A DNA stretch of 64,000 nucleotides from Candidatus Woesebacteria bacterium (GCA_017999345.1 JAGNLY010000001.1:88744-152743); one strand, 5' to 3'; numbered from the stretch's first letter, positions 5,460 through 23,560 are shown. Notes: a model not told the origin generated them from the letters alone. A program made the numbers and translations.

Positions 5460-5541
5460 AGCAAATCCATTAGTTTCATCCTTACTAATCCCCAGTAAAT
5501 CCTCTTTATACCCGTTCCGTAACGAGTCCAATAAGGGGAGC
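5460..5541 (+). repeat. Intergenic repeat, module A1 (long form), ending GGGGAGC. No module B follows it.
   Basis: aaatccattagtttcatccttactaatccccagtaaatcctctttatacccgttccgtaacgagtccaataaggggagc. The same element recurs at ~7338 and ~16045. Confidence 0.8.
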
Positions 5542-5569
5542 TTATGAGTAAATATATTGATAAACCAAA

Positions 5570-6484
5570 CTATTTTACGTTTAAATGGTGTTGGTTTTCA
5601 CTGTGTTTGTCAGTAACACAATCCACGCCTGAACAAGAGCTTTCATTCTCTATCTCAATAGTGGAGTGCTCAATGTGATGTTTTTCCAGTTCTGTTTTAA
5701 TAAGTGATTTCATTTCTTCTGCTTTGCTCGTAACCTGATCTTTGATGACAACATGCCCTGTGAATACGTCGGTTTCGCCATCAAGTGACCATACATGAAT
5801 GTCGTGAACTCCTACAACCTCTTTGACTTTGAGCAAACCTTTTTTGATATGGTCAATATTAATATGACTAGGTACTCCCTGCATTAAAATATTTAGGCTT
5901 TCTTTCAGATTTTTACTTACACCCCACAATATGAAAACGGTATACCCAATTGTCATAATTGGGTCGATGATAGGGTTGTTCCAAAAATACATCACTACAC
6001 TACCTATTAACACCATTACCCAACCCAATACATCTTCGAGTAAATGCCAAGTCAACGCTTTTTCGTTCATACTTTGACCACTTCTCAGTTTTAAGAAACC
6101 AAAGCCATTGAAAATCACACCAATAATGGCCAAGAAAATCATGCCCTGTACATGGACAGGTTCAGGATTGAGTAAACGCGGAATTGCTTTGCTAAGAATG
6201 AAGAGAGATCCACTCATTAACACAACTGAGGTGAAGACAGCAGCACCTAACGAAAGTCGTTTATACCCAAAGGTTCGTTTTTGATCAGGTCCTTGCTGAG
6301 ACTTTTTCTCGGCAATCCAAGCTAAAATGAGAACTAAACTATCACCAAAGTCGTGAAGAGCGTCAGACAAAATTGTCAAACTATTAGTAAAAAGACCTCC
6401 AGCGATCTCAATCAGTGTAAAAGTAATGTTTATGACAATTGCCCAAGAAAGATTATTTGTTTTGCCGTGATCGTGTGAGTGCAT
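5570..6484 (-). CDS. Cation diffusion facilitator (CDF) family metal efflux transporter of the CzcD/ZitB type
   Basis: Six transmembrane helices and a His-rich N-terminus (MHSHDHGK). The sequence contains typical CDF signatures (SLAILSDALHDFGD, HVWSLDGETDVFTGHVVI). Confidence 0.85.
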   Translation of the reverse strand: MHSHDHGKTNNLSWAIVINITFTLIEIAGGLFTNSLTILSDALHDFGDSLVLILAWIAEKKSQQGPDQKRTFGYKRLSLGAAVFTSVVLMSGSLFILSKAIPRLLNPEPVHVQGMIFLAIIGVIFNGFGFLKLRSGQSMNEKALTWHLLEDVLGWVMVLIGSVVMYFWNNPIIDPIMTIGYTVFILWGVSKNLKESLNILMQGVPSHINIDHIKKGLLKVKEVVGVHDIHVWSLDGETDVFTGHVVIKDQVTSKAEEMKSLIKTELEKHHIEHSTIEIENESSCSGVDCVTDKHSENQHHLNVK

Positions 6485-6579
6485 ATTTTAATTCTAACTG
6501 AAATAATCATTTTTATGCTGGTGAACTTTGAGCATATGATAGAGTATTTCTTTTTAAGTTGATATACTTTGTAATAAGT

Positions 6580-7284
6580 ATGTCTATTCCTTCAGAACTA
6601 ATAAAAACTAATTCTAAATATCAAGTTAAAGACGATATTTTCATTTTTACTCAAACAGAAGACCTTAGAAAAGATAATAAAAAATATTCTGGTTTTTACA
6701 ATGTAATCGCTAATCTATATGATATAGGTTCCAAAGTTTTTTTTTGGTTTCATGGTGGTGAAATAAAGGCAAGAAAAGAGTTTCTTGAAGAACTAAAAAT
6801 TGTATCTGGAGCTAAAGTATTAGAGGTATCTATTGGAACAGGGACGAACATTTCAATGTTACCTAAAGACGCTGATTACTTTGGAGTTGATATTTCATAT
6901 GGGATGCTAAAAAAATGCCAACAGAACTTGAACAAAATGGGTAGACAATCACTCTTGTTCCAAGCTGAAGCAGAGCACTTACCGTTTAATGATAATACAT
7001 TTGACTCAGTATTTCATGTGGGTGGCGTCAACTACTTTAATGAAAAAGGCAAAGCATTGGCTGAAATGGTTCGTGTATCTAAGTCTGGTACCCATCTCAC
7101 CATTGTTGATGAAACGGACAAATTTTTTGAGACACTTAGTTGGATACCATTTTTGAAAAATGCATTTCCCACAGGAAAAGCTACCAAACCACCTACTGAA
7201 TTATTACCTAGTGGTATGAAAAACATTCAAGTCAGTGAAATCGTGAATGGGAATTATTGGAGACTGACTTTCCAGAAGCCCTAG
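6580..7284 (+). CDS. Class I SAM-dependent methyltransferase (UbiE/COQ5-like)
   Basis: Motif I is VLEVSIGTGTN, followed by FGVDISYGML and FDSVFHVGGVNYF. The start was placed at ATG 6580, just downstream of TGATATACT (an extended -10). Confidence 0.8.
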   Translation: MSIPSELIKTNSKYQVKDDIFIFTQTEDLRKDNKKYSGFYNVIANLYDIGSKVFFWFHGGEIKARKEFLEELKIVSGAKVLEVSIGTGTNISMLPKDADYFGVDISYGMLKKCQQNLNKMGRQSLLFQAEAEHLPFNDNTFDSVFHVGGVNYFNEKGKALAEMVRVSKSGTHLTIVDETDKFFETLSWIPFLKNAFPTGKATKPPTELLPSGMKNIQVSEIVNGNYWRLTFQKP

Positions 7285-7337
7285 TTAATTTTTCGAAGAT
7301 TTATATTTTTTTAGATTTGACTAACTGACAACTGAAC

Positions 7338-7458
7338 AAATTGTTTACTAAATCTATTAACTTCATCTTTATTTATCCCTAACAAATGCTCTTTATATCC
7401 GTTCCGTAACGAGTCCAATAGGGGGAGCAATAACCAAATTAGATCTATATACCAATCT
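7338..7458 (+). repeat. Intergenic repeat: module A1 followed by a degenerate module B
   Basis: ...ctctttatatccgttccgtaacgagtccaatagggggagc then aataaccaaattagatctatataccaatct. Confidence 0.8.
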
Positions 7459-7660
7459 AAATTTAACTATCACACACAACATTTCAATATAAAATTGAAT
7501 AGAAATTCACTATCTTTGTTGTGTTTTTATTGTATCCTAAAATAGATTAAGAAATTTGATAATTAATCTATTTATAATATATATTTATTATTTGTGTTCG
7601 GATTCATTTTAAGTTATGCTTTCTCATGAAGAGACATAAAAAAATATTTAAAAATAAGTT

Positions 7661-8500
7661 ATGAATCAAAATGAATCGCCATCGGAAATAATTGAAAAAC
7701 TTACTGAAAGTAATAAAGAATTTCGTTCAAATACCTTACCATCGATTGATGATTTACATACTATGGCATTGATGACTCAAGACAAAGGTCTCGAATTGGG
7801 AGTTTCACTTTATACAGCATCCAAAGGAGAAATAAAAGGATCTGCATTTAATGTCGGAACCGAAAGAAGCATCTACGAGCCCACACCCCCACGTGAATTA
7901 AGAGGAAAGATTTCATCGGGTGTTTTTATTCATTGTCATCCAATTTCCGAAGATGAGAGAGTTCCTGACGGAAAATCACTTCATATACTTCCGAGTGGAA
8001 CACAGCCATTCGAAGGAGATTTTGAAGCAAGCTATATGTCTAGAGTTGTTGCAGGATACTTAAATGTTGCGAGCGAATATGGACTAACAATGATGGTAGG
8101 AATAGAAGGAATTGCAAGAGAAGATGACATTACTAGAAAAATGAGAGAAAAACTTGGTCGTTCTGATTTGGCAAGAGAACGCACATGGAAAGTTCTTAGT
8201 GGAGAACAAGGTGGTGTTGCTATGGTTGGCGATGAGTTTAAAGTAGCGGTAGACGATAAGTTTTCAATTAATGAGGATGTTGTTTTATTAAGTAACACTC
8301 AAGAGCTTGGAGTTAGATACTTTCTTCATATATCTTGGGATAAACTTAAAGAGTTGGAAAAAAGCTATGGCTCATTAGAAAATCTCTGTTTTGGCGATGG
8401 ACTTGAGTCTTTGCTTCAAGAACTAAATATTGAAGTACAACACGAAAAAAATTTGGGTTCTGCGGCTGTTCAAGTTTATAAGATGCCAAAAGAGAGATAG
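7661..8500 (+). CDS. Hypothetical protein of 279 aa
   Basis: ORF bounded by repeats on both sides. No family was recognised. Confidence 0.6.
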   Translation: MNQNESPSEIIEKLTESNKEFRSNTLPSIDDLHTMALMTQDKGLELGVSLYTASKGEIKGSAFNVGTERSIYEPTPPRELRGKISSGVFIHCHPISEDERVPDGKSLHILPSGTQPFEGDFEASYMSRVVAGYLNVASEYGLTMMVGIEGIAREDDITRKMREKLGRSDLARERTWKVLSGEQGGVAMVGDEFKVAVDDKFSINEDVVLLSNTQELGVRYFLHISWDKLKELEKSYGSLENLCFGDGLESLLQELNIEVQHEKNLGSAAVQVYKMPKER

Positions 8501-8524
8501 TCTAGGCTCTTAATATCTAAATCT

Positions 8525-8611
8525 GAGATAGTTAGCAATCCTTCCTCATAACCGTTCCTTAACGCATCCGTCAGGGGGAGCTTTTTCCAAAATAGATCTA
8601 TATATCAATCT
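8525..8611 (+). repeat. Intergenic repeat: module A2 followed by a degenerate module B
   Basis: aatccttcctcataaccgttccttaacgcatccgtcagggggagc then tttttccaaaatagatctatatatcaatct. Confidence 0.75.
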
Positions 8612-8650
8612 TTTTAAAATATTATGTATAAATTATACAGTAGGAGTGCG

Positions 8651-9118
8651 TTAACTAATTGATGTAAATATGGATTTTTCTAGGTATTGCTGTGCTTGAG
8701 CAACTAATCCATTTAGATAATCAGTTATCTCACTTGCCAAATGACCCTCAGTTGCCTTTGTGATTAGTAACTTACAGATCTGTGTTGCATAATAACCATT
8801 TGGATCTTTATCTTTATCGCATAGGTTTACTCTTGCAAGTTCAAATTGTTCTACTTCTTCCAAATTACCTTTATCACTTGATAAATAACCTATTAACCAA
8901 TATTCTTTGTCTGTTTCATTAGATTCTAGTCCAGCACTAACTCTAGTTTCAGTATTGAGTTCGTCATTTCTTGCTACTTGATTGAAAATTACATCAATTG
9001 TTGGCATGAGTAAAACATCTGCCGTTTCTGGATGTGCATTTTCTCCCGATATTAGTTCAGCAGAAGTGCAGATGGAATTTGAAACAACTGAATCATAGCC
9101 TTTGAGTATCATAAACAT
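8651..9118 (-). CDS. Hypothetical protein of about 155 aa. This is the only inverted gene inside the repeat-bounded array.
   Basis: ORF track 8651-9184, trimmed to the internal Met because the N-terminal poly-Ile extension is a translated AT-rich leader. The module B promoter on the opposite strand points into this gene. Confidence 0.55.
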   Translation of the reverse strand: MFMILKGYDSVVSNSICTSAELISGENAHPETADVLLMPTIDVIFNQVARNDELNTETRVSAGLESNETDKEYWLIGYLSSDKGNLEEVEQFELARVNLCDKDKDPNGYYATQICKLLITKATEGHLASEITDYLNGLVAQAQQYLEKSIFTSIS

Positions 9119-9162
9119 AAATATATCATATTTTATTCTAATGATAATAATAATTATTAGAT

Positions 9163-9257
9163 AAACAAGTAATTTTCCACCCACTTCCTAGTTCGAGTAA
9201 CAACCTGTTGGGGGAGCTTTTAAATTATAGGCTTATTTACGCCTATATACCAATCCT
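9163..9257 (+). repeat. Intergenic repeat: module A3 followed by a full-length module B
   Basis: aagtaattttccacccacttcctagttcgagtaacaacctgttgggggagc then ttttaaattataggcttatttacgcctatataccaatcc. The B module is identical to the copy at 16132-16170. Confidence 0.85.
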
Positions 9258-9311
9258 TTTTAATTTATATATGATCATCAGTAATTTTTAGTTATTTGAT
9301 ATAATTACTGA

Positions 9312-10529
9312 GTGATAAGTAAAGAACTACAAGAAATTTTGGATACAAGGATAGAGTCAGAGGCAACTTTAAATACGCTTTTTGCCGTTATCAGAAGTGG
9401 TTTGTTGGGTGAGATTAATGCTACTCAAAAATTAAAATTATCTGCTAGATTTGAGGAAGCCTCAATTGTTTTAAGAGAGCTCAGCGAATCGCCTAAAGAA
9501 GAAATTGCACAAACACTTCAACATGAGCAAGATAATTTAAAAGAATTACCACCATTGAATATACAATTACCGCAAATTTCTTATGGAAAGAGAATGCCTT
9601 TGGGAAGAAAGGCATATGAATATACCTTTGGTAATAGTAAAAATGCATCATCATATAAATTTTCAGATAATCCAGCTTATTATTTTACAATGGGTCAGCA
9701 GAATGACGTCAATGCAAGAGAATCTGAATTTTATAGAAGAGAAGTATTAAGGTCAAACATACCTAGGGCTATTATTCTTGATACCAGTTATATAACCGAA
9801 AGAGGCGTAAGTTTAATTAGGTTGTATAGGATGCATGATGGTTTATTTGAAAATGTCCAAGAAGGAGTTTTTGATAATTCTCGTCCATTCAAACAGGCCG
9901 ATGTTACGGTTTTGAGTCCAAAAGGAAAATTTGAGGCTGAAAATAATGAAATAATTATTGCCTTATCAAAAGGATATTCAGTATTTCCAAAAATGGCTTT
10001 TGGAGAAAGATTCACGTTTGATAGAGGACAAGAAATTTATAATGATAATTTGCTATCAGCTGACAAAACTAATTTTGATAATCGAGAGGCATTACTATGG
10101 AAAAATAATAAATTAAATTCTGATAAAGTAGTTGAAATAATAGCAAAAAGCTTACTTTACTTAAAAAAAGGAATGTCAATAATAATTTTTTCAGACCTAT
10201 TGGAGATAAGTAATCTTGATGAAATTGATAAGACAATTATATTTGAAATGATATATTTTCTTGCATTAGGAATGGGAATTACAGAGTCTCTTGGCTTCCA
10301 ATCGGACCTTTCTGCGAGATCGCCTCAGAAAGTAAATTTTTATAATTCAAATGATCGACCTGAAGGAATTTTTCATAAGCCTAAAGAAGTTGTTTGGATA
10401 AATAAACAGCCAGAAGAAAAAACTCAAGAAGAGATTGCGCTCGTAGAAAAAATAAACGACACATTTAGGTCTGGAGGAAGTTGGATAGAGAACTATGAAA
10501 AGTGGAAAGAAGCATTTCTAAATAAGTAA
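9312..10529 (+). CDS. Hypothetical protein of 405 aa
   Basis: ORF with a GTG start 9 nt after TGATATAAT (an extended -10). Its TAA stop is the first triplet of the following A3 repeat. Confidence 0.6.
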   Translation: MISKELQEILDTRIESEATLNTLFAVIRSGLLGEINATQKLKLSARFEEASIVLRELSESPKEEIAQTLQHEQDNLKELPPLNIQLPQISYGKRMPLGRKAYEYTFGNSKNASSYKFSDNPAYYFTMGQQNDVNARESEFYRREVLRSNIPRAIILDTSYITERGVSLIRLYRMHDGLFENVQEGVFDNSRPFKQADVTVLSPKGKFEAENNEIIIALSKGYSVFPKMAFGERFTFDRGQEIYNDNLLSADKTNFDNREALLWKNNKLNSDKVVEIIAKSLLYLKKGMSIIIFSDLLEISNLDEIDKTIIFEMIYFLALGMGITESLGFQSDLSARSPQKVNFYNSNDRPEGIFHKPKEVVWINKQPEEKTQEEIALVEKINDTFRSGGSWIENYEKWKEAFLNK

Positions 10530-10604
10530 TTTTCCACCCACTTCCTAGTTCGAGTAACAACCTGTTGGGGGAGCAAATACTAAATTATAGCCATAAACCA
10601 ATCT
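10521..10604 (+). repeat. Intergenic repeat: module A3 followed by a degenerate module B
   Basis: aagtaattttccacccacttcctagttcgagtaacaacctgttgggggagc then aaatactaaattatagccataaaccaatct. Confidence 0.8.
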
Positions 10605-10971
10605 TTTTTAATATCAATTTTTTTTAAACAGTTGTAATTATTTATTATAATTTTATACTGATGTTAGCGTTAATTAATTCTATATATGAATCTAATTGCA
10701 TTTTTTTACTTATATTGGAAACAGATAATTGCTGTAATTTTGTTTGTTTTACTACCATTTATTTGGCTGTCATTTCAATGGGGACTTATTATTTATTTAA
10801 TTGAAACTAAACTTAGACCTAAGTTAAAGAAAAAGAATTAGAGGTTATTAAAAATGTTGTCAACTCTCTTTTTAAGAAAATTATAAGTACAGTTGAAGTT
10901 GAATAATTGTTTTCTAGATATTCTCAGTCTGTTTCAAAGAAAATTTGTTAACATGTTATAATCTGTTTCAT

Positions 10972-11598
10972 ATGAAAAAAAATAAGATTATAATAATTTT
11001 ATTAGCTTTTTTAATCACTTTCTTTGGAATTTATTTACTCTCAAAAAACGTTAGATTTAATGATAATAAGAAAGTTGTTGCTGAAACAGAAAATGATAAT
11101 TTGGAGCTTGAAGAAATTTCCCACTTTGATGATGACGCACTAGGGTTATCACTTAATTTTCCTGAGGGATGGTTTATCCACAAAGTAACTTCAAATGGCA
11201 ATGGAGCAAGACAAGTTACATTTACAAATCATTATTCTATAAATCCACCATGGGATTTAGATGAAAATAGCGGAATTGCTATTTTTGTTTCAAACAGTGT
11301 TTTAGACACCTGTTACTCTGAAGATGATTATCAACCAATGATTGATTTACCAATGAATGACAAATATAAAAATGAATGCAGAATCTTTACTAAGATAAAT
11401 GAATTTATGATCGATGGAAGCACTGCATATGTATTTGAACAACAAAATGTTGGTTCATCTATTGAAGGTGAAGCTAAGATTAATCTTTATTTAATTAATA
11501 CTCCTTCAGGTACAATTAATTTGGAGATCTTTAGCAAGAATTTAGATTTATCATTCGAAAAACCTGAACACATAATTTCTTCTGCAAGTTTATTGTAG
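10972..11598 (+). CDS. Secreted or membrane-anchored hypothetical protein
   Basis: N-terminal signal or anchor (MKKNKIIIILLAFLITFFGIYLLS). ATG 10972 follows TGTTATAAT (an extended -10) by 9 nt. Confidence 0.65.
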   Translation: MKKNKIIIILLAFLITFFGIYLLSKNVRFNDNKKVVAETENDNLELEEISHFDDDALGLSLNFPEGWFIHKVTSNGNGARQVTFTNHYSINPPWDLDENSGIAIFVSNSVLDTCYSEDDYQPMIDLPMNDKYKNECRIFTKINEFMIDGSTAYVFEQQNVGSSIEGEAKINLYLINTPSGTINLEIFSKNLDLSFEKPEHIISSASLL

Positions 11599-11880
11599 TT
11601 CCATTATTTTTCATATAACTCAACCATAATCATATTTCTTTGTATAAGCCTTATACATTGACCATATAATCTTACCCTATATAATCAGTTTTTGTGCACT
11701 ATAAATAGTACACAACATAGTCATAGAAGGTTAGCAATAGTACAAAAACGTATTTGAGCTGGCCCGATGGATTGTTCTTTAACAGTTGAATATAAAAAAG
11801 GAGGTAGTCTTCTCAAAAATGTTCGTTGTTGTTTAATCAGATTTTCAAAACGATTTCTATAGAAAAAGGAGTTAGGTACT

Positions 11881-16044: not shown

Positions 16045-16170
16045 TGTATGTTAAATTCTTTAACCTCTGACATAGTGATCTCTAACAAATGCTCTTTATA
16101 TCCGTTCCGTAATGAGTCCAATAGGGGGAGCTTTTAAATTATAGGCTTATTTACGCCTATATACCAATCC
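16045..16170 (+). repeat. Intergenic repeat: module A1 (long form) followed by a full-length module B
   Basis: ctctaacaaatgctctttatatccgttccgtaatgagtccaatagggggagc then ttttaaattataggcttatttacgcctatataccaatcc. Confidence 0.85.
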
Positions 16171-16276
16171 TCTTTTAATATAATGAAAAACTACTTAACT
16201 TTAAAAATTAAGTATCTTTATTTGTCAGTAAATTTTTATGTTACATAAAAAATAAAAGTAATGGTATTCTTTATTT

Positions 16277-18409
16277 ATGCACGAGCGAAGTGGTAATAAA
16301 TTTTTAGTCAAACAATTTCCCGATCTGCACAAATCAGAAGATGTTTTGGCTGCAACAATAAAAGTTTCTAGAAAAAACCTAGGCCATCAAAATCCAAATT
16401 CTTTTAATAAAGAGGAGCGGGTTAATATTTACCTAGATCGTATAAAAAAACTTTTTATTGATCCTGACGAAAGAGCTAGAAAACGTAACATAAAGTTAGT
16501 GGCTAGTAAGTTATTTGAAGATATAGTTATTTCTGAAGACAATTTTCCTGATGCCTATTTAGAAAATGAACAAAAATTGGCAAAAGAGCGTGGACATGGT
16601 CATATTGAGATTACCCAAGAACTGAAAAGAAAAGCTATTGGATTTGTTCAGAATGATCAAAAAGCTAGTTATAGTAGATGGTTAGATTATTTTTCAAGTG
16701 ATGATGCACCTTATCCTACATGGTTTAAATATTATGTATTGAGAGGCGTGTCAAAACTTCTGCCATATGATAAAGTTAGTGGTAAATTCCACAAACGCTC
16801 AAAGAGCTCTACGAAAATTTTTCCTGAAATTAATAGAGAAGCACTAGCATTTGTTTATGAGGCTATGGATACTGACGAGACTTCAGATATTGATCAACAG
16901 CTTAAAAGCTTACTTGTTGGTGGTAATTTTGCAAAGTTATATGGTTATGCTGTGGAAACGCAATTATCGCAATCAATTGAAGCTAAAGAAAAACGTAAAA
17001 GTATTAAAGGGAGCTGGAAGTTATTCGAGCAGTATGATGAAACTAAACTTGATGAATCCGAAGCTAACTTGAGAACACTTGTTGATTCAATACAGGGAAT
17101 GGGGACTGGTTGGTGTACAGTGGGCGAAGAAATGGCGAGGAGTCAATTAGAGGGCGGTGACTTTTATGTTTTTTATTCTCGTGATGATAATGAGCAAGAC
17201 ACAGTTCCTAGAGTTGCAATCAGAATGGAGCATGGTGAGGTTGCTGAGGTTAGGGGTGTAAACCCCGATCAAGAGCTAGAGCCAGAACTAATTGATACTG
17301 CTAGAGAAAAATTTGTAGAATTGCCAGGTGGTGATAGGTATGAGAAGAAGGTCTTAGATATGAAAAGACTAACTAAGCTGGAAGAAATGATTTCCAAAAA
17401 TGAAGAGCTTACAGTTGATGATTTGCGTTTTTTATATGAATTAGATAGTTTAATAGAAGGATTTGGTTACACAAACGATCCAAGAATTAAAAAACTTCAA
17501 TCACAGAGAGACATCGATATAGACTACAACCGTTTGTTCATAAAAACAACAGATATAGAACTCAAAATAAGAGAAGGTAAAGAACTTACCAGAGAAGAAC
17601 TTATTTACTTATATGGAGTTGAGCGCCTTTTTAATCCTTCAAAAGACGTTGAAGACAAGAGGCTTAAAAATAATAAGATGTTTGTCAAAAATAAGAAAAA
17701 GCTACTTGAACTTTCTCAAGAAAGAGAAATTCGTGCAGAGGAAATCGCTTCCATATTTGGAATTAGTACTGAAGAAGTTGCTACTAAAAAAGAAGGTGCG
17801 GGAGAGAAGACAAAAATATATGTAGGCAAAATATTTCCAGGAATAAAGAATTTGCAAAACCTTGAACATATTTACATATCTTTTCCTGACTCAGAGTTGA
17901 TTACTACCGAAGTAAGAACGAAAGCAAATTCCTCTCAAGAACTTCTAGATATTGTTAATAATAGCTCAAATGTTGGTATAACTAAGGCATATGGTGAAAG
18001 TACTCAAAGAGACATTGAGGGAACGATATTAAATTTAAAGGTATTTAAATCTGAAAAAAGTATTATAAATGAAGTTTGTATTATGACATCTGAACAACTT
18101 GGTTTAACGCCTTTTTTTGGAGAAAGATTTGAGCAAGGAGGTTTGGAAGCAGTATTTGATAGAATAGAAAGTTTAGGTTTAGAAGTCTGTCCACCAGAAA
18201 TAGCGTTGGAATATGCTATTCAAAATATTGGCAAGATACCTAGTGGAACTAAATTTTATTTAGGAAAAGATCCTGTAGAAAGACCAAATAAAACACCTGG
18301 TTATCTTAAACTAGAATTTTTCAATACGAATATTATTGTAGATTTTTACGGTGTTCCAAGAGGTAGTAACTTTTGTAATAATTATGTAGTAAGAATTCCT
18401 GTTATCTAA
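16277..18409 (+). CDS. Hypothetical protein of 710 aa, large and hydrophilic, with no recognised domain
   Basis: Long ORF with an ATG start. It is flanked by A/B repeats on both sides. Confidence 0.7.
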   Translation: MHERSGNKFLVKQFPDLHKSEDVLAATIKVSRKNLGHQNPNSFNKEERVNIYLDRIKKLFIDPDERARKRNIKLVASKLFEDIVISEDNFPDAYLENEQKLAKERGHGHIEITQELKRKAIGFVQNDQKASYSRWLDYFSSDDAPYPTWFKYYVLRGVSKLLPYDKVSGKFHKRSKSSTKIFPEINREALAFVYEAMDTDETSDIDQQLKSLLVGGNFAKLYGYAVETQLSQSIEAKEKRKSIKGSWKLFEQYDETKLDESEANLRTLVDSIQGMGTGWCTVGEEMARSQLEGGDFYVFYSRDDNEQDTVPRVAIRMEHGEVAEVRGVNPDQELEPELIDTAREKFVELPGGDRYEKKVLDMKRLTKLEEMISKNEELTVDDLRFLYELDSLIEGFGYTNDPRIKKLQSQRDIDIDYNRLFIKTTDIELKIREGKELTREELIYLYGVERLFNPSKDVEDKRLKNNKMFVKNKKKLLELSQEREIRAEEIASIFGISTEEVATKKEGAGEKTKIYVGKIFPGIKNLQNLEHIYISFPDSELITTEVRTKANSSQELLDIVNNSSNVGITKAYGESTQRDIEGTILNLKVFKSEKSIINEVCIMTSEQLGLTPFFGERFEQGGLEAVFDRIESLGLEVCPPEIALEYAIQNIGKIPSGTKFYLGKDPVERPNKTPGYLKLEFFNTNIIVDFYGVPRGSNFCNNYVVRIPVI

Positions 18410-18481
18410 TTAGTTTTTTAACAATATTAAAATTTTTCTGAAAACAAAAATCCCATAACAAATTTCTCAACATTTTTCTTC

Positions 18482-18559
18482 CAGATCTGATGAGTTCGAG
18501 TAACAACCTGTTGGGGGAGCTTTAAAATTATAGGCTTATTTATGCCTATATACCAATCT
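18482..18559 (+). repeat. Intergenic repeat: module A4 (a 5'-truncated relative of A3) followed by a full-length module B
   Basis: ctgatgagttcgagtaacaacctgttgggggagc then tttaaaattataggcttatttatgcctatataccaatct. Confidence 0.85.
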
Positions 18560-18568
18560 TTTTTTACA

Positions 18569-18634
18569 TATACACCCCCGACAGGACACTTTAGCCTTGG
18601 ACCCGAACAGAGTAAACTATTTGATATAATATTT
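18569..18634 (+). promoter_or_regulatory. Module C upstream element ending in the extended -10 TGATATAAT. It probably produces a leaderless transcript for gene 18637.
   Basis: cccccgacaggacactttagccttggacccgaacagagtaaactatttgatataat, with the ATG 8 nt downstream. Confidence 0.55.
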
Positions 18635-18636
18635 AG

Positions 18637-19128
18637 ATGAACAAACTTACTCTTGAAGCAGCAAAAGTACTTAAAAAAATTCTGTATATAAATATTGCAT
18701 CGATTACTCCAGAAGGTGAGCCATGGAATACACCAGTATATTGCGCATATGATTCAAAGTTAAATTACTATTGGTTATCATGGAAAGATAACCAACATTC
18801 TATAAATGTTAGAAATAATCCCAAAGTTTTTATAACTTCTTATGATTCGACAGTTCCCGCAAGCACAGGTTTTGGCGTGTATCTAAAAGGAGAAGCAAAA
18901 GAATTAAAAAATCCAAAAGATATGTTGATTGCGATAACAGAAGTTTATAAAAGAGAAAAAAGAAAACCAAGACAGGTTGCTGAATTTCTCAAAAAGTTTC
19001 CTAGAAGAATATACAAGTTTACACCAAATCAAGTGTGGGTTAATGGAGACGCTAAAATAGATGGAAACTTTATTGATGTTCGTACAGAACTTAATCTAGA
19101 TGAACTTAGGGAAGCTATAAAGAAATAA
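18637..19128 (+). CDS. Pyridoxamine 5'-phosphate oxidase-like (PNPOx-fold) FMN-binding family protein
   Basis: The N-terminal pattern LYINIASITPEGEPWNTPVYCAYD...NPKVFI is typical of PNPOx-like general stress proteins. A paralogous fold is encoded at 41927. Confidence 0.65.
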   Translation: MNKLTLEAAKVLKKILYINIASITPEGEPWNTPVYCAYDSKLNYYWLSWKDNQHSINVRNNPKVFITSYDSTVPASTGFGVYLKGEAKELKNPKDMLIAITEVYKREKRKPRQVAEFLKKFPRRIYKFTPNQVWVNGDAKIDGNFIDVRTELNLDELREAIKK

Positions 19129-19139
19129 AGGTTTTTGCT

Positions 19140-19574
19140 GTGAATTTAATTATAACTAAATCAACTGAGAAAGAAGTCGAAGCCTTTGAAGCTCAATCTT
19201 GGAGTGCTGAGGATCTAAAACATTATAGAAGAGAAGTTTCTTGGGATGAATGGAATCCAACCAAATTTATTTTCAAAGCAGAACTAGATAACGAGATTGC
19301 TGGCATTATTGGAGGAAATATTACCGTTGGCGTTACTTTCATAGAAAGAATAATTGTTTCTGAATCATTTAGGAAAATGGGTATCGGTAAACAACTTATA
19401 CAAAAAGTTGAAGATTATGCAAAAGAGCTGAATTCTCATAAAATATATCTTTATACTGGAAAAGATTGGTCTTCAAACAAATTTTATGAACAAATTGGTT
19501 TTAAAAATACTGGCGAACTTGAAAATCACTATTTAAATGTTGATTTTGTAATTTACACTAAATTCTTGAAATAA
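19140..19574 (+). CDS. GNAT family N-acetyltransferase
   Basis: The acetyl-CoA binding region is RKMGIGKQLIQKVEDYAKE (the R/Q-x-x-G-x-G/A motif). A GTG start lies 11 nt after the upstream stop, and the pair probably forms an operon with 18637. Confidence 0.8.
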   Translation: MNLIITKSTEKEVEAFEAQSWSAEDLKHYRREVSWDEWNPTKFIFKAELDNEIAGIIGGNITVGVTFIERIIVSESFRKMGIGKQLIQKVEDYAKELNSHKIYLYTGKDWSSNKFYEQIGFKNTGELENHYLNVDFVIYTKFLK

Positions 19575-19626
19575 TAAGTAATTTTCCACCCACTTCCTAG
19601 TTCGAGTAACACCCCAGCGGGGGAGC
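19571..19626 (+). repeat. Intergenic repeat, module A3 variant. Its 5' end overlaps the tandem TAA stops of the GNAT gene, and it has no module B.
   Basis: taagtaattttccacccacttcctagttcgagtaacaccccagcgggggagc. Confidence 0.8.
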
Positions 19627-19639
19627 CACATTTTTTACT

Positions 19640-19695
19640 CGAAAAGAATTTCATTATCCCAAACAGGACTCGAACTCCTGTTATAATTCATTTTA
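19640..19695 (+). promoter_or_regulatory. Module C (short form) ending in the extended -10 TGTTATAAT, upstream of gene 19698
   Basis: cccaaacaggactcgaactcctgttataat, with the ATG 10 nt downstream. Confidence 0.5.
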
Positions 19696-19697
19696 AT

Positions 19698-20291
19698 ATG
19701 AGAAAAATTATCCTAGTAGAGTTTATGACAATCGATGGTGTGATGCAGGCGCCCGGTGGATCCAAAGAAGATACTGCAGAAGGCTTCAAGTATGGTGGGT
19801 GGATGGGTCCGCATTTTGATGAAGTTGGTGGGAAAGAAATGGAATTTCAAATGAAAGAGACAGCTGCATTACTCATAGGACGCAAAACATATGATATTTT
19901 TTCTGAATATTGGCCAGACCATTCAGAACCTTGGCCCCAAGTAAATAGGATTGCCAAATATGTTGTATCCAAAACCTTAAAAAACCCAACTTGGGAAAAT
20001 ACGGAAGTGATAAGAGATGTTAAAGAGTTAAAAGAACTAAAAAATTCAATCGGTCCAGACCTACAAGTGTACGGAAGTAGTAACCTTGTGCAGACTTTAT
20101 TAGCAAATGATCTGGTAGACGAACTTTGGCTCAAAATCTTTCCAATTACTCTTGGAACTGGAAAGCGGTTGTTTGAAAAAGGTACAATACCTGCTGCTTT
20201 CAAGCTCTCAAAGTCTAAGGTTACCCCAAGCGGTGTCATCATTGTCTATTATCAACGTGCAGGGGAAGTCAAAACCGAAGATATTGAATAA
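19698..20291 (+). CDS. Dihydrofolate reductase family protein (RibD C-terminal domain / YwjB-like)
   Basis: MRKIILVEFMTIDGVMQAPGG...LLIGRKTYDIF...WP is a typical RibD_C / DHFR-like reductase signature. Confidence 0.8.
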   Translation: MRKIILVEFMTIDGVMQAPGGSKEDTAEGFKYGGWMGPHFDEVGGKEMEFQMKETAALLIGRKTYDIFSEYWPDHSEPWPQVNRIAKYVVSKTLKNPTWENTEVIRDVKELKELKNSIGPDLQVYGSSNLVQTLLANDLVDELWLKIFPITLGTGKRLFEKGTIPAAFKLSKSKVTPSGVIIVYYQRAGEVKTEDIE

Positions 20292-20369
20292 AAACCTAGC
20301 CTCATAGGTATGTACACTATTCTAATTATAGATATAAAAGTCTTGTTTAGATGACAGCAATCAAAGAAA

Positions 20370-20439
20370 GCACTTCCTGATTTCCTCTATGACGGGGAGC
20401 ATTTAAATTAAAATCTTATTTATTCCTATATACAAATCT
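20370..20439 (+). repeat. Intergenic repeat: module A5 (short form) followed by a degenerate module B
   Basis: cacttcctgatttcctctatgacggggagc then atttaaattaaaatcttatttattcctatatacaaatct. Confidence 0.7.
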
Positions 20440-20448
20440 TTTTTCAAT

Positions 20449-20515
20449 ATATATACCCCGATAGGACAGGTTTGCTCGAGACTCGAACTGAGATAAAAAT
20501 GTCTGCTATAATTTT
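20449..20515 (+). promoter_or_regulatory. Module C ending in the extended -10 TGCTATAAT, upstream of gene 20531/20564
   Basis: ataccccgataggacaggtttgctcgagactcgaactgagataaaaatgtctgctataat. Confidence 0.5.
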
Positions 20516-20563
20516 ATTATTAACTTGAATATGTTAAAAAATATTTCTTTTGAAAGGAATAAA

Positions 20564-21769
20564 ATGTCTCTATCTCATGAAAAGGATGATAAATTAAATA
20601 TTGATCATAGTGAAGACTATAAAGATGGGATTTTTTATTTACCTGAGAGAGGCTTAGTTACAGATGGCACATTTAAATATACAAAGCAGGCTGTACAATT
20701 AAAATTAGAAACTCTTTTAGCAAATCAATCATCATATCCAGCAGATAAAGATAATGTTCAAAATGCCATAAAACAAACAGAATATATGCTTTCTTTATTT
20801 CCAGAAGAAAGAGATGATGAAAAACCCTTCATAGGTCAAACTTCTCCTAATCTAGAGAGTGAGGAGAAAGCTTTTCATCCTGATAAAAATGACACACTAG
20901 AAAATCAACTAAAAAAATATCAAGATTTAGTCAAATATTCTGGACCTCACTCAATTTTAGGTAAATTCTATAGAACACAAATTGCAAGAATTAATAGACT
21001 TATATCTCGTGAAGAAATTAAATTATTTGAAGAAAAAGCTGTTGCTATAAAGAGAATAAATAAGCTAGCAAGTGACTTAGGAGTTTCTATCAGGGAGCCT
21101 TATGTAAAGGATAGAGCACCAGGATTAGATGAGGCAACTTATGCATATCGTTTGCAAGTACTTCCCATGCTTAGAATTCTGTCCAAATTAATTGATTCTT
21201 GGTCAATAAATCTAGCCAATATGCCAGTGGTTGAATTGCTATCTCATGGCTCAAAGGTTTCGGATGAAGATTTATTAAAAGTAGCTAATAAGCTAGCAAC
21301 TTTTGTATTGAATGCACTCGACAATAAGTCTTCTGATCCAGAATTTGCTCATAAAATTAATAATTTATTAAACGCAGGCTCATTATCAGAGTTATTAGAT
21401 GCTATTGAAAAAGAATTTGATAAGAGTTCTCTTGACACAGAATCTCAAGAATCAACACTACTCACAGAACAAACTTCTGAAGTTGCAGAATATGAAAGCA
21501 ATGCTCAAGAAGTAGATATCTCATCAATTGCTGAAACTTTGATGGAAGCAAGAAGAAGTGTGGAACCAACTATGCCATGGGATCTAATTAAAAAATTAGC
21601 TGTATTAATTGTTGAGAATCATCCTGAAATTATTATGGTTTTTAATAATCAAATGCAAACATTACTAGCTGAATCTCATCAAACGCTTCCTAGTGGAGTT
21701 CATGATTCTGATGTAGCAGGAAGATTGAATCCACTCATCATTGAATTGAGATCTAAATTAAAATCATAA
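20564..21769 (+). CDS. Hypothetical protein of about 400 aa. It is a paralog of the gene at 23628 through a shared segment of about 40 aa.
   Basis: The start was chosen at the ATG preceded by GAAAGGAATAAA. Alternative ATG starts exist at 20531 and a TTG at 20525. The protein contains ENQLKKYQDLVKYSGPHSILGKFYRTQIARIN. Confidence 0.6.
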   Translation: MSLSHEKDDKLNIDHSEDYKDGIFYLPERGLVTDGTFKYTKQAVQLKLETLLANQSSYPADKDNVQNAIKQTEYMLSLFPEERDDEKPFIGQTSPNLESEEKAFHPDKNDTLENQLKKYQDLVKYSGPHSILGKFYRTQIARINRLISREEIKLFEEKAVAIKRINKLASDLGVSIREPYVKDRAPGLDEATYAYRLQVLPMLRILSKLIDSWSINLANMPVVELLSHGSKVSDEDLLKVANKLATFVLNALDNKSSDPEFAHKINNLLNAGSLSELLDAIEKEFDKSSLDTESQESTLLTEQTSEVAEYESNAQEVDISSIAETLMEARRSVEPTMPWDLIKKLAVLIVENHPEIIMVFNNQMQTLLAESHQTLPSGVHDSDVAGRLNPLIIELRSKLKS

Positions 21770-21946
21770 ATCGTCATAAGCAATTATTGTTACGTGATTT
21801 GTAAATTCTTTAATAGCATCTTTATAATATTTTTCAGTAAAATTCTTTGTTCCCATCAAGATTGTATAACTTTCATTTTTTAAATTCATAACTGGATTTT
21901 AGCATAGTGGACTACTACTTTTAATATTTTGCTATAATCAACTCCT

Positions 21947-23164
21947 ATGAACATCAATCAATATTATTCTCAAATCAAACTGGAAGAAAAAAGAAATGAA
22001 GAATTTTTGCATTTAACCGCAAACGAGCCATTAATGTCAGAAACAGCAAGGGCATTTATGAGTTCAAAAATTGCAGACAGATATTTTTTGGGCGCAGGTG
22101 AAGATTCTAAAGTAGATTTAGGTCCTTTCACGGCTTTGGGTTTTCCAGGGATTGCTTCTTTAATTGAGGCCGCCGTAGAAGCCTCCAAAGAAATGTTGGG
22201 TGCAAGTGTAGTAAATTTAAGTTGCCTTTCTGGCGTTCATGCCATGATGTGTGCAATTTTGTCCACAACTGAGCCTGGCGATGTTGTAATGACAGTCCAT
22301 CATGATCACGGCGGACATTTTGCTACAAAAGGAATAATAGAAAGAGTTGGTAGAAAGCATGTTTTTGCAGAGTACAATTTTAATACACTTTCATTTGATG
22401 TCGAAAAACTTGCAAAGAAATTTAAAGAATCGGGAGCTACTGCATTTTATATGGATGTCTCATACTATTTAAATCCTCACAATTTACGTGAAATAAGAGA
22501 GGCTTTGGGAAGCGATGCAATAATTATTTATGATGCAAGTCACACAATGGGGTTGATCATGGGACAAACATTTCAAAATCCATTTTTAGAGGGAGCTGAT
22601 GTTATTTGTGCAAATACTCATAAAACATTACCTGGTCCTCACAAGGGTATGATAGCTTTTAGAGATCTTGAGCTGGGAACTAAGGCAAATAATATTATTA
22701 AAAGTTGTTTATTTTCTTCGCCAATCACACATCATTTAATTGCACTGGCAACCACAATTCTAGAAATGAAAGAGTTTGGCCAAGAATATGCAAAACAAAT
22801 TATTGCAAACTCCAACGCCTTAGCAGAAGCATTGGTTGATAAGGGTTACTCAGTTAGAAAAGCAAACACTGGCCGTTATTCAGAAAATCATCAAGCACAT
22901 TTATTAACACAAGAAATAGGTGATTATAAAAAACTTTACGATCAATTATTCAATAATAATATTGCAGTTAATTTTGATAATTTGTTTGATAAGGGTATTT
23001 TTATTCGTTTGGGAACTCAAGAAATAACTCGAAGAGGTATGAAAGAAAATGAGATGAAAAAAATTGCTGAATTTATTGACCGATCATTTAAGGGTGAAGA
23101 TCTTAAAAAAGAAGTTGAAAATTTTGTCAGCTTATTTCAAAAAGCACACTATTCTTTTGATTGA
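21947..23164 (+). CDS. Serine hydroxymethyltransferase-like PLP-dependent enzyme (divergent GlyA family)
   Basis: The PLP-lysine motif ANTHKTLPGPHKG (compare SHMT TTHKTLRGPRGG) is present. The N-terminal HLTANEPLMS matches the SENFTS region, with the HHDHGGH block. The whole is clearly divergent from canonical GlyA. Confidence 0.7.
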   Translation: MNINQYYSQIKLEEKRNEEFLHLTANEPLMSETARAFMSSKIADRYFLGAGEDSKVDLGPFTALGFPGIASLIEAAVEASKEMLGASVVNLSCLSGVHAMMCAILSTTEPGDVVMTVHHDHGGHFATKGIIERVGRKHVFAEYNFNTLSFDVEKLAKKFKESGATAFYMDVSYYLNPHNLREIREALGSDAIIIYDASHTMGLIMGQTFQNPFLEGADVICANTHKTLPGPHKGMIAFRDLELGTKANNIIKSCLFSSPITHHLIALATTILEMKEFGQEYAKQIIANSNALAEALVDKGYSVRKANTGRYSENHQAHLLTQEIGDYKKLYDQLFNNNIAVNFDNLFDKGIFIRLGTQEITRRGMKENEMKKIAEFIDRSFKGEDLKKEVENFVSLFQKAHYSFD

Positions 23165-23201
23165 GTAGATAATTTTTCTCTTTTAGATATAATTAAATAT
23201 A

Positions 23202-23483
23202 ATGTCATTTCAAGCATATTTAGATAACATTGAGGAAAAAACTGGAAAAACTCCACAACAGTTTATTGATTTGGCAAAAGCCAAAGGTTTCGACAAAAAC
23301 ACAAAGGCTGGGGAAATTCTTACTTGGTTAAAAGATGAGTATGGACTAGGTCGAGGACATGGCATGGCACTAGTGCATATCATTAAAAATGGACCAAATA
23401 TTGGTGATAAAAATGTAAACAGTGGTGGAGTTCACAGTGACTCATCAGATACCTTAATCCTTACTGGAAGAAATATTAAATAA
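23202..23483 (+). CDS. DUF4287 domain protein
   Basis: MSFQAYLDNIEEKTGKTPQQFIDLAKAKGF...EILTWLKDEYGLGRGHGMALVHII matches the DUF4287 pattern. Confidence 0.7.
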   Translation: MSFQAYLDNIEEKTGKTPQQFIDLAKAKGFDKNTKAGEILTWLKDEYGLGRGHGMALVHIIKNGPNIGDKNVNSGGVHSDSSDTLILTGRNIK

Positions 23484-23560
23484 TTATATAAATCAATGCT
23501 TCTAGTATTGCAAGTTCACTTATCCATATAGGAAAGGTTTGCCAGGGACTCTAATTAATT
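23484..23560 (+). repeat. Degenerate module B 3' part followed by a module C-like element upstream of gene 23628
   Basis: ttatataaatcaatgcttct (compare ctatataccaatct of module B), then ccatataggaaaggtttgccagggactc (compare ccccgataggacaggtttgctcgagactc of module C). Confidence 0.5.

Follow-up and report, generated by a model that had tools for sequence, protein, structure and literature searches.

In cassette chromosomes of the SCCmec/ECC kind, large serine recombinases (Ccr) catalyze integration at the 3' end of rlmH, and the resulting composite arrays carry short direct repeats between units and pseudo-elements without recombinase genes. In mycobacteriophage integration-dependent immunity, attP lies in the 3' end of a gene, and integration alters the C terminus and the behavior of the encoded protein; the proteins affected are the repressor and a tyrosine integrase, with a tail that acts as a degradation tag. 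In the tycheposon islands of Prochlorococcus, 910 of 937 elements have tyrosine recombinases, and the units are several kilobases long with replication modules (10.1101/2020.12.28.424599). In the sites of large serine recombinases (LSRs), the motif of the zinc ribbon domain is located 5 bp nearer to the center in attB than in attP (PMC3783163).

Positions 5450 to 23600 of the window, which is the whole 64-kb stretch of DNA analyzed here, are probably the LSR-less part of a tRNA-Asn-anchored island of LSR-dependent cassettes in a Patescibacteria (CPR) bacterium. On the best reading of the sequence, these ~18 kb would be split by LSR attachment sites into exchangeable cassettes of one or two genes each, a novel variation on the island and cassette systems known so far, laid out like an integron but with a different enzyme. 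As in integrons, the recombinase is at one end, the cassettes are small and mostly co-oriented with one or two genes, a conserved recombination element ends each cassette, the cargo varies between relatives, and arrays exist without a nearby recombinase (CALINs in the case of integrons). However, integrons use a tyrosine recombinase, folded single-strand attC hairpins, and an attI anchor, whereas this island has an LSR, putative double-strand-type att half-sites from a tRNA 3' end, a tRNA-Asn gene as the anchor, apparent promoters of the cassettes' own, and sites that also supply the C-terminal tail of the recombinase. Integration at a tRNA gene, the proposed pushing of older units by new arrivals, partial tRNA copies between units, degenerate remnants, and a small streamlined host genome are shared with tycheposon islands, but here the enzyme is an LSR, most cassettes are single-gene units without an LSR that share two modules (B and C), and the repeats are tRNA copies with a 5- to 6-nt insertion and a coding tail rather than plain partial tRNAs. 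The SCCmec/ECC systems likewise combine a large serine recombinase with the 3' end of a conserved gene as the target, although that target is rlmH instead of tRNA-Asn and the units are large; to our knowledge, neither pseudo-tRNA sites nor recombinase tail swapping has been described for them. The A118/LI phage integrases have the same set of Resolvase, Recombinase, and zinc ribbon domains and an outer motif 5 bp further from the center in the P-type than in the B-type half-site (PMC3783163), but here a tRNA gene is targeted, the site takes in the 3' end of the recombinase gene itself, and many putative P-type sites stand in tandem. The change of a protein's C terminus by integration is common to this locus and integration-dependent immunity, a regulatory role of the tail being hypothetical here.

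The features of the locus are as follows.

1-5541: rightmost 5.5 kb of an integrative element that bears an LSR (whole element, ~11 kb)
266-628, minus strand: SpoVG-like gene
904-1644, minus strand: gene for a 246-aa protein
1631-3109, minus strand: DUF2779 gene
3096-3722, 3810-4799, and 4806-5393, plus strand: genes in the right part of the LSR element
5450-5541, plus strand: site 1, type T1, with a P-left arm and a 28-nt pseudo-tRNA-Asn core, GTTCCGTAACGAGTCCAATAAGGGGAGC; its minus strand encodes the tail LPLLDSLRNGYKEDLLGISKDETNGFAEKFARLLIKTQNNNLQI, then a stop; proposed attR of the LSR element
5542-7428: cassette 1, with degenerate B (5542-5571), CDF metal exporter gene (5570-6484, minus), SAM methyltransferase gene (6559-7284, plus), and T1 site (7337-7428)
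7429-8581, plus strand: cassette 2, with short B (7429-7465), gene for a 279-aa orphan (7661-8500), and T1 site (~8490-8581), with a tail frame that runs antisense over the 3' end of the gene
8582-9217: cassette 3, with short B (8582-8618), gene for a 177-aa orphan (8651-9184, minus), and T2a site (9170-9217)
9218-10574, plus strand: cassette 4, with full B (9218-9262; hairpin ATAGGC/GCCTAT), gene for a 405-aa orphan (9312-10529) with the box TGATATAAT immediately 5' of its GTG start, and T2a site (10527-10574), whose first bases are the gene's stop codon
10575-16131, plus strand: cassette 5, with short B (10575-10611), gene for a 217-aa secreted protein (10945-11598), gene for a 1,333-aa M23 peptidase/PA14/DUF2341/LamG protein (11881-15882), and T1 site (16040-16131)
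16132-18520, plus strand: cassette 6, with full B (16132-16176), gene for a 710-aa orphan (16277-18409), and T2b site (~18430-18520) with the tail LPQQVVTRTHQIWKKNVEKFVMGFLFSEKF, then a stop
18521-19626, plus strand: cassette 7, with full B (18521-18565), module C (18566-18636; inverted tRNA-like motif and TTGATATAAT), PNPOx-like gene (18637-19128), GNAT gene (19140-19574), and T2a' site (19579-19626)
19627-20400, plus strand: cassette 8, with a variant right arm (cacattttttACTCGAAaag, an inverted copy of TTCGAGTAA), short C (19650-19697), RibD_C reductase gene (19698-20291), and a degenerate site ending at 20400
20401-23590, plus strand: distal, decaying part of the island, lacking any intact core, with B (20401-20445), C (20446-20524), genes for a 414-aa orphan (20525-21769), an SHMT-like protein (21947-23164), and a DUF4287 protein (23202-23483), and a lone C-like remnant (23521-23590)

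The repeat family is real, as a repeat search of the window that recovered the module A, B, and C families, a motif count, and nhmmer profiles agree. The GGGGGAGC-ended core of module A is 27 to 28 nt long and starts with GTTC. The 64-kb window contains nine copies of GGGGAGC, all on the plus strand and within 5535-20400, and none of its reverse complement, and the profiles of modules A, B, and C find no copy in the window outside 5450-23600. The ends of module A lie where the first-pass annotation had placed them (5541, 7428, 8581, 9217, 10574, 16131, 18520, 19626, and 20400), but the five variants that it named reduce to two main types, T1 (~92 nt; sites ending at 5541, 7428, 8581, and 16131) and T2 (~48 nt; sites ending at 9217, 10574, 18520, and 19626), with a degenerate copy ending at 20400. 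Nine sites therefore delimit 8 fully bounded cassettes rather than 13 repeat-bounded units, and the gaps at 6485-6558, 11599-11880, 19129-19139, 21770-21946, and 23165-23201 hold no recognizable module. Logan contig L001 corresponds to window 16142-18522, in the region of cassette 6, and so is bounded by the repeats.

The repeat search and nhmmer agree with the first-pass annotation that module B is identical at 9219 and 16132 and differs by 3 nt at 18521; its shorter or degenerate copies at 7429, 8582, 10575, and 20401 were recovered as well, but the one claimed at 23484 was not recovered by the B profile. Module C, said to precede each next gene, is an inverted tRNA-like motif 45 to 95 nt away and is detectable by its profile at only four places (18570-18641, 19652-19693, 20451-20524, and 23521-23590). 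The sequence AAGTAAttttccaccc occurs three times, and its TAA had been taken each time as the stop of the upstream gene; this is so for a plus-strand gene only at 10527-10529, as at 19572-19574 the preceding TAA is the stop and at 9168 the neighboring gene is on the minus strand. A promoter consensus scan gave 92 hits against 82 expected and is uninformative in AT-rich DNA, but TGnTATAAT-like boxes stand a few bases 5' of several start codons, and it appears that the cassettes have -10 boxes and promoters of their own.

A generic REP/MITE or terminator family that is dense here by chance, which would fit the intergenic position of the repeats at gene 3' ends, the small B hairpin followed by T-runs, and the multiple sequence variants, is highly improbable. 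In the complete 1.08-Mb genome of a relative (JACKFW010000001.1), one strand has 22 sites and the other a single one, and all of them fall within one 48-kb stretch. The sites are thus not spread over the genome, and colonization of the locus by such elements, as had been suggested, fails on this confinement. The sites in the window are also uniformly oriented, there are no target-site duplications, RAYT, or transposase, and the core, besides its homology to tRNA-Asn, lies in the reading frame of LSR genes in different phyla.

The statement that no integrase is in the window is literally true, but Logan contig L161, which is identical to window 1-3030 (100%) and extends it leftwards, carries genes for HTH_17, two DNA methyltransferases, HNH_2, and a 487-aa LSR. 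The LSR gene is on the minus strand (L161 7193-8653), 4.2 to 5.6 kb beyond the left edge of the window, and the LSR-bearing element extends past that edge by 5.6 kb, as far as this gene and a tRNA-Asn 3' end. The Resolvase, Recombinase, and Zn_ribbon_recom domains of the LSR score 65.1, 50.2, and 29.1 bits, respectively, all above the Pfam cutoffs. The stop codon of the LSR gene is inside the tRNA-Asn 3' end, so that the LSR end is antisense tRNA sequence; for the genome of the window itself, only the last 32 nt of this head tRNA are seen, at the end of L161. The LSR aligns over its full length with ~70 metagenomic LSRs (E values of 1e-60 to 1e-80), several of which overlap genuine tRNA-Asn(GTT) genes. 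SpoVG-like genes also occur together with homologous LSRs in L093, L096, L100, and L104, and primase- or helicase-like genes are found in some metagenomic relatives. The array is thus tied to a site-specific recombinase, as had been supposed, and a recombinase gene was found in the flank, though it is not of the IntI tyrosine type.

The core of module A reproduces the tRNA-Asn 3' end as a pseudo-copy with 5 to 6 extra bases, which are inserted between the T-loop motif (GTTCGAGT/GTTCCGTA) and the acceptor strand GGGGGAGC. The span from GTTC to GAGC is 22 nt in every true tRNA-Asn, whereas at 46 sites in CPR arrays it is 27 nt (26 sites) or 28 nt (20 sites). For the left half-site, this offset matches the difference between attP and attB of LSRs. 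A convincing right half-site was not found at the array sites; among the right arms, at least three unrelated families can be distinguished, and an inverted TTCGAGTAA/TTACTCGAA pair, ~44 bp across, is seen only at site 19626. Sequence comparison narrows the crossover to the shared GGGGGAGC, in which we infer the crossover point itself.

These cores bear directly on the proposal of a canonical or decayed integron, in which an IntI-type tyrosine recombinase would capture cassettes at attC hairpins. The small co-oriented cassettes, each with a conserved element at its 3' end, have that appearance, and the A-B-C element at 18480-18625 can fold into a long imperfect hairpin, but five of the eight elements have no advantage over shuffled sequence in folding (z of -0.7 to +0.2), and the RYYYAAC/GTTRRRY boxes of attC are absent from the elements, as already noted in the first pass. 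Pfam scans of the window and its 5.6-kb extension detect no tyrosine recombinase or phage integrase domain, and the enzyme linked to the array belongs to the serine recombinases. The cores can be aligned with tRNA-Asn 3' ends, and the cassettes appear to have their own -10 boxes. With pseudo-tRNA-Asn ends in place of attC hairpins and an LSR as the enzyme, an integron can be virtually dismissed.

The minus strand of the 30 to 70 nt left of each core continues the LSR reading frame past its last Trp codon, the TGG being the reverse complement of the CCA of the tRNA. These stretches encode conserved alternative C-terminal tails of the LSR, and in L016, P0004, P0005, L096, L099, L116, and L128 they are in frame with LSR C termini (...PTYRKPF...W|LP...). 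In a 21-aa tail family, pN/pS is 0.54 in the tail frame versus 2.0 and 1.0 in the other frames, and a stop is present at codon 22 in 15 of 17 members; for the T1 tail, the values are 0.65 versus 1.31 and 0.89. The conserved Arg codons of the tail are AGA, CGA, and CGG. The tails look coding, the pN/pS contrasts being moderate and derived from short, saturated sequences.

In relatives, tRNA-Asn heads the arrays, partial tRNA-like direct repeats lie inside them, and the cassettes are discrete with varying content. Cassettes begin immediately after a tRNA-Asn gene in L049, L029, L051, L065, and L067; this gene was called by ARAGORN in L049 and L029 and is split by a group I intron in L051. The locus-specific modules are 80 to 92% identical between the window and the JACKFW array, but the cargo turns over, with only 1 of 19 island proteins, the SHMT-like one, having a homolog in that array. 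Thus, neither a genome-wide spread of the modules nor an invariant locus was found in the relatives compared. Window 18513-19626, which contains cassette 7, matches L051 1515-2627, from another MAG, at 89% identity; the homology begins at the upstream GGGGGAGC and ends at the downstream GGGGGAGC, the neighbors differ on both sides, and in L051 the cassette has a different array position, directly after tRNA-Asn. In L067, a homolog of the 3' end of the 414-aa gene is followed by an intact T1 site. Among assembled Logan contigs, which break at the repeats, no circular junction, empty site, or within-sample alternative neighbor was found.

It is also possible, though unlikely, that the array is a pile of successive full-length LSR elements that lost their recombinase and backbone by deletion, with cassettes that are not self-mobile and that are reshuffled between genomes by ordinary homologous recombination between the 30- to 130-nt repeats. 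Truncated LSR 3' ends of graded length precede some sites (162 codons in L016, 54 in L046, and 28 in L116), module B occupies the position of the hairpin at the LSR 3' end, site quality falls with distance from the tRNA, most arrays lack a recombinase, and tycheposon islands show a like pattern of remnants and scattered partial tRNAs (10.1101/2020.12.28.424599). However, many cassettes have a uniform B-C-gene-A build, and between the two genomes modules B and C are better kept (80 to 92%) than the genes (~75%). The tail frames are open with coding-like substitutions despite being detached from any LSR, LSR-less cassettes adjoin the tRNA in five loci, and cassette homology stops exactly at the 8-nt core, not inside longer repeats.

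In the preferred reading of an LSR-dependent cassette island, the tRNA end would serve as an attB-type left half-site and the array sites as attP-type left half-sites, with strand exchange within the shared GGGGGAGC. New elements and cassettes would be inserted at the tRNA end, displacing older ones outwards, which would explain the decay of sites with distance (20400, ~21800, and 23500). An LSR-less cassette would consist, in order, of the B hairpin, module C with a -10 box, one or two genes, and module A. Because no LSR was found in the 48-kb JACKFW array or beside tRNA-Asn in L049, L029, and L051, such cassettes are assumed to be moved in trans by an LSR; alternatively, they may hitchhike in excisions that join the tRNA-proximal site to an A site further out. 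We infer the activity of the LSR and the roles of modules B and C. Canonical LSRs recombine attP only with attB, and need a directionality factor to recombine attL with attR, and an array with P-type left arms at all internal junctions is not a simple prediction of this scheme. Excision via site 1 would fuse the LSR, which now ends in WLPR and a stop, to the 44-aa T1 tail, and we hypothesize that such a fusion could switch the enzyme between integrated and free forms.

The 64-kb window contains nine copies of the motif GGGGAGC, always on the plus strand, and no copy of its reverse complement. Profile searches with nhmmer placed all copies of modules A, B, and C, the intergenic repeat parts of the array, at 5450-23600 and none elsewhere in the window, and a repeat search also recovered these families. 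Four full-length and three shortened copies of module B, which includes a 6-bp hairpin (ATAGGC/GCCTAT) together with the box TATACCAATC, are present. Module C, recognizable at four places, is an inverted tRNA-like motif 45 to 95 nt from the core that reads GTTCGAGTCC..GGGAT on the minus strand; the spacing in its short form roughly resembles that of a tRNA.

Features of the array in the window
5541, 7428, 8581, 9217, 10574, 16131, 18520, 19626, and 20400, plus strand: GGGGAGC at the ends of module A (motif count), each end being one site
Module A, type T1: about 92 nt, four copies
Module A, type T2: about 48 nt, four copies, the left arm being of two kinds
Module A at 20400: degenerate copy
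9224-9253, 16138-16167, and 18527-18556, minus strand: TTGGTA-18-TATAAT promoter-like boxes, from which transcription would start near the GCTCCCCC of the tail (the minus-strand peptide frame of module A)
Further cargo: M23/PA14/LamG giant protein, SHMT-like protein, DUF4287 protein

Nine sites were found, and the array therefore contains eight one- or two-gene cassettes bounded on both sides; its distal part has no intact sites, and minus-strand genes occur in two cassettes. The cargo listed by the first-pass annotation, namely, a CDF exporter, a methyltransferase, a PNPOx-like protein, a GNAT, a RibD_C protein, and orphans, was broadly correct, and PADLOC gave no defense-system match for ten orphan cargo proteins. 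The gene for the 1,333-aa M23/PA14/DUF2341/LamG protein contains an internal tandem duplication (14050-14860 and 15061-15861; period, about 1,008 nt; 71 to 87% identity) and carries the DUF2341-LamG unit twice. The orphan genes at 20525-21769 and 23628-24518 have in common a 151-nt stretch that is 84% identical (20886-21036 and 23680-23830) and encodes the motif LENQLKKYQDL..YSGPHSILGKFYRTQIARIN, making it a paralogous module in two island genes. Across the whole window, Rfam detected only a SAM riboswitch and had no match for the modules, ARAGORN predicted no tRNA, and a promoter/terminator consensus scan gave counts not above background. The riboswitch is of the SAM-I class (RF00162; 48.8 bits; 38516-38612, minus strand) and lies directly upstream of an S-adenosylmethionine synthetase gene (37545-38522, minus strand). 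Single-strand folds of the sites were mostly no better than those of shuffled sequences, and attC-like or structured-DNA sites were rejected on this basis.

The minus strand of every module A copy is open in one frame from the CTC CCC of GCTCCCC, reading LPLLDSLRNGYKE.LLGI... in T1 and LPQQVVTRTRKWVENYL... or LPQQVVTRTHQIWKKNVEKFVMGF... in T2, and upstream of these frames the window has neither a start codon nor an open frame. The promoter-like box on the minus strand of each full module B points into this tail, and similar -10-like boxes precede GCTCCCC in Zixibacteria sites. A scan of 185,579 species genomes with one pattern for both T1 and T2 returned 79 loci, among which the real relatives belong to Patescibacteria, Zixibacteria, Ignavibacteriales, GN15, FCB, and Bacteroidota MAGs. 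In these relatives, the tail frame is a 21-residue peptide (e.g., LPRQDVIRTFQPVVEYLRRTG*), likewise with nothing upstream. GCTCCCC is invariant as DNA, and the codon for the conserved Arg varies (AGA, CGA, and CGG). In the arm left of the core, the pN/pS ratio of the 21-aa family is 0.54 in the tail frame versus 2.0 and 1.0 in the other frames, with a stop at codon 22 in 15 of 17 cases, and that of the T1 arm is 0.65 versus 1.31 and 0.89; substitutions there look coding in the tail frame only.

The origin of the frame is visible in L016, a contig of an FCB-group MAG (L numbers denote retrieved genome or metagenome contigs), where 160 in-frame codons before the tail encode the C-terminal portion of a large serine recombinase (LSR), identified through the relative P0006, which has PF07508 and PF13408. 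Two other relatives, P0004 and P0005, end in ...PTYRKPFDLLAKGL..W LP..D. A metagenome scan with the L016 LSR region yielded 80 loci, with full-length LSRs of about 470 to 520 aa. In the metagenomic LSRs, the residues after the conserved Trp are the antisense translation of tRNA 3' ends (WLPREDSNLGPGG, WLPGLDSNQ...), TGG and CTCCCC being CCA and the acceptor strand, respectively, in reverse complement, and in L104, L101, L089, and L090 the overlapped gene is visibly tRNA-Asn, with the anticodon loop CTGTTAA. The LSRs of L096, L099, L128, L093, and the L116 group instead read into array-type tails. The sites are tRNA-Asn derived and in frame with LSR genes. Descent of module A from a displaced host protein gene, considered because of the open minus-strand frame, was ruled out, as the frame is an LSR tail. 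The 44-aa T1 tail found no candidate among 5.8 billion proteins, and viral contigs gave seven isolated pattern matches and no LSR relative, which leaves a phage origin without support. An 11-bp inverted repeat (AAAGCCCTTTG / CAAAGGGCTTT) encodes the invariant LSR motif RKPF...AKGL about 13 to 45 nt upstream of the LSR stop in L104, L101, L096, L099, and others, at the same position as the module B hairpin. This suggests a DNA-level constraint, in which the repeat either belongs to the site or serves the convergent tRNA gene as a terminator.

One of the minus-strand window genes at 266-3109 is SpoVG-like; such a gene also accompanies LSRs in L093, L096, L100, and L104, and an LSR element was therefore predicted left of the array. 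The 8,673-nt Logan contig SRR11088486_32438 (L161), identified by exact-protein matching, equals window positions 3030-1 at 100% identity over its first 3,030 nt and extends the window by 5,643 nt. The first-pass annotation had proposed searching the flanks for a recombinase, and this extension does contain one, of the serine class.

Features of the leftward extension (window's minus strand) and tRNA 3' exons
L161: 389-aa protein
L161: 57-aa HTH_17 protein
L161 4082-7188 (window about -1050 to -4160), minus strand: C5 methyltransferase, D12-class methyltransferase, and HNH_2 nuclease in a row
L161, window about -4162 to -5625, minus strand: 487-aa LSR
L065 about 2688, L067 about 4213, and L161 8642-8673: tRNA 3' exon

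The 487-aa protein has Resolvase, Recombinase, and Zn_ribbon_recom domains, all over the Pfam cutoffs, and terminates in ...CADSQTW-LPR*. Its final codons are antisense to GGTCGTAGGTTCGAATCCTACCGGGGGAGCCA, the T-arm plus acceptor end, at which the contig ends. An LSR and a tRNA end are located at the head of the window's array, and the locus order is tRNA-Asn, the LSR gene (convergent with and overlapping the tRNA), an element of about 11 kb, the T1 site at 5541, and the cassettes. The C5/D12/HNH_2 run is likely restriction-modification cargo of the LSR element, and the 57-aa HTH_17 protein next to it could be an excision or directionality factor. The LSR contigs had no terminal overlaps, i.e., no sign of circularity. 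Many metagenome contigs (L082, L084, L096, L100, L103, L104, L105, L112, and L161) end within about 100 nt past the LSR 3' end, a pattern that repeated sequence, or sequence varying among members of the population, on the far side of the site would produce. The tRNA 3' exon of L161 is also present in L051, L065, and L067. In L051 (1213-1522), a group I intron (RF00028; 113 bits; about 250 nt) splits tRNA-Asn(GTT) in the anticodon loop, between GU and U, which explains why ARAGORN called no tRNA in this contig; it also missed those of L065 and L067. LSR-less cassettes directly follow tRNA-Asn in L051, L049, L029, L065, and L067, and that of L049 is bracketed by a 19-nt direct repeat, GGGGAGCTTTATCCTATAG.

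The tRNA ends and the array sites differ in spacing. The GTTC-to-GAGC distance is 22 nt in every true tRNA-Asn end versus 27 nt (n = 26) or 28 nt (n = 20) in the array sites of Patescibacteria (CPR), with the extra bases just past the T-loop motif (GTTCGAGT-AACAA-CCTGTTGGGGGAGC versus GTTCGAGT-CCTAGAGGGGGAGC). In the Listeria A118-family integrase, the zinc-ribbon-domain motif is 5 bp nearer the center in attB than in attP, and the attP half-site is 25 bp (PMC3783163). Because of this offset, the spacing suggests that the tRNA end is a B-type (attB-like) left half-site and that module A copies are P-type (attP-like) left half-sites. The head tRNAs retain the 22-nt form, and the displaced sites retain the 27/28-nt form. 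The four junction types (tRNA/LSR, tRNA/B, A/B, and A/other) have only GGGGGAGC in common, and strand exchange is therefore expected within or at the edge of these 8 bases. The right arms belong to at least three families, and a search around the array sites for a matching right half-site and the exact crossover dinucleotide found no convincing one.

The arrays are locus specific, and their cargo turns over. In the related contig JACKFW010000001.1 (JACKFW; single contig of 1,082,363 nt), whose genes are about 75% identical to those of the window, all pattern matches fall in six adjacent 8-kb blocks at 384-432 kb. This array has 22 sites on one strand and 1 on the other, spaced 0.5 to 5.3 kb apart, with modules 80 to 92% identical to those of the window, and at least 41 kb of 1.08 Mb, or at least 4% of the genome, is a single array. 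Of the 19 island proteins of the window, it encodes a homolog of only one, the SHMT-like protein. Neither of the two outcomes that the first-pass annotation named as refuting its interpretation, modules spread over the whole genome and an invariant locus across relatives, was observed. JACKFW (L044, L007, L075, L035, L066, and L013), L034, and L049 are labeled Pseudomonadales or Gammaproteobacteria; given their G+C content of about 33 to 44%, Patescibacteria-like genes, and the same array, these labels look wrong.

Cores delimit at least one cassette as a discrete unit. Window 18513-19626, comprising modules B and C, the PNPOx-like and GNAT genes, and a T2a site, recurs in L051 at 89% identity; the homology runs from the upstream to the downstream GGGGGAGC, and the neighbors differ on both sides. 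This cassette is the first after tRNA-Asn in L051 and the seventh LSR-less one in the window, about 24 kb from the tRNA. Site quality in the window drops away from the tRNA: sites are intact up to 19626, the one at 20400 is degenerate, near 21800 there is no more than a possible T1 remnant, at a place where the L067 homolog keeps a site, and module C stands alone at 23521-23590. This decay with distance fits growth at the tRNA end. The main rival explanation is that the arrays consist of decayed full elements reshuffled by homologous recombination, which would account for a series of truncated LSR ends (162, 54, and 28 codons), the shortest in L116, where two antisense cargo genes and then a second site, which keeps 28 codons of an LSR 3' end, come after an LSR, and for the lack of a nearby LSR in most arrays; however, the cassette build is uniform, the modules are better conserved than the genes, and homology stops exactly at the core. 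Exact-protein look-ups for alternative junctions in the source sample returned repeat-bounded contigs only. In a Zixibacteria MAG (L025 and L045; JACZXB010000006.1, 160-176 kb), two sites at about 6620-8560 surround a single 453-aa gene adjoining a heme-biosynthesis operon, a one-cassette version of the arrangement in another phylum.

In a mechanism based on the LSR, the enzyme would recombine the tRNA-type site with P-type sites inside GGGGGAGC, and new units would enter beside the tRNA. LSR-less cassettes would be moved in trans or would travel with an excision that joins the tRNA-proximal site to a distal module A, and excision through 5541 would exchange the LSR end WLPR* for the 44-aa T1 tail. 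That the tails are conserved suggests a need for them in the free LSR. Canonical LSRs recombine attP with attB, and attL with attR when a directionality factor is present, and internal junctions that all have P-type left arms are not obviously allowed by these rules. Either the right arms are equivalent, in which case the reaction would be reversible, or the array chiefly documents earlier integrations. The LSR/tRNA model does not account for the module C motif, the module B box, or the cassettes with minus-strand genes.

The array is not an integron, both the enzyme class and the site being wrong for one, nor is it a REP or MITE family. The closest known systems are tycheposon islands, which are tRNA anchored with tandem integration, and the LSR-driven SCC/ECC cassette chromosomes. 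Unlike these, the present system combines an LSR with a tRNA-Asn target, pseudo-tRNA sites with a P-type offset, coding tails, and long arrays of recombinase-less single-gene cassettes with modules B and C in common, and its host belongs to Patescibacteria. Our literature search found no description of a serine-recombinase cassette array or of such a CPR island. A bolder reading, which we consider tentative and rather doubtful, is that of a serine-recombinase counterpart of the integron, in which LSR-less single-gene cassettes with an attP-type pseudo-tRNA-Asn site are captured and released singly at a tRNA-Asn platform of Patescibacteria, with the site-set tail as a built-in switch of activity or direction. 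The site used would then set the LSR tail, 3 aa at the tRNA versus 20 to 45 aa at a cassette or attP arm, and the smaller arrays of Zixibacteria, Ignavibacteriales, and relatives would belong to the same system.

Serine-integrase engineering could profit from these natural collections of P-type and B-type half-sites and from a recombinase whose C terminus depends on the integration state. Little is known about how Patescibacteria, whose genomes measure about 1 Mb, exchange genes. The JACKFW array would be a set of one-gene units that can replace one another and that depend on a single recombinase and a single tRNA gene. If the LSR moves the cassettes, this would be a second, mechanistically independent answer to the integron problem, the storage and swapping of single genes, in a system that may span several phyla.
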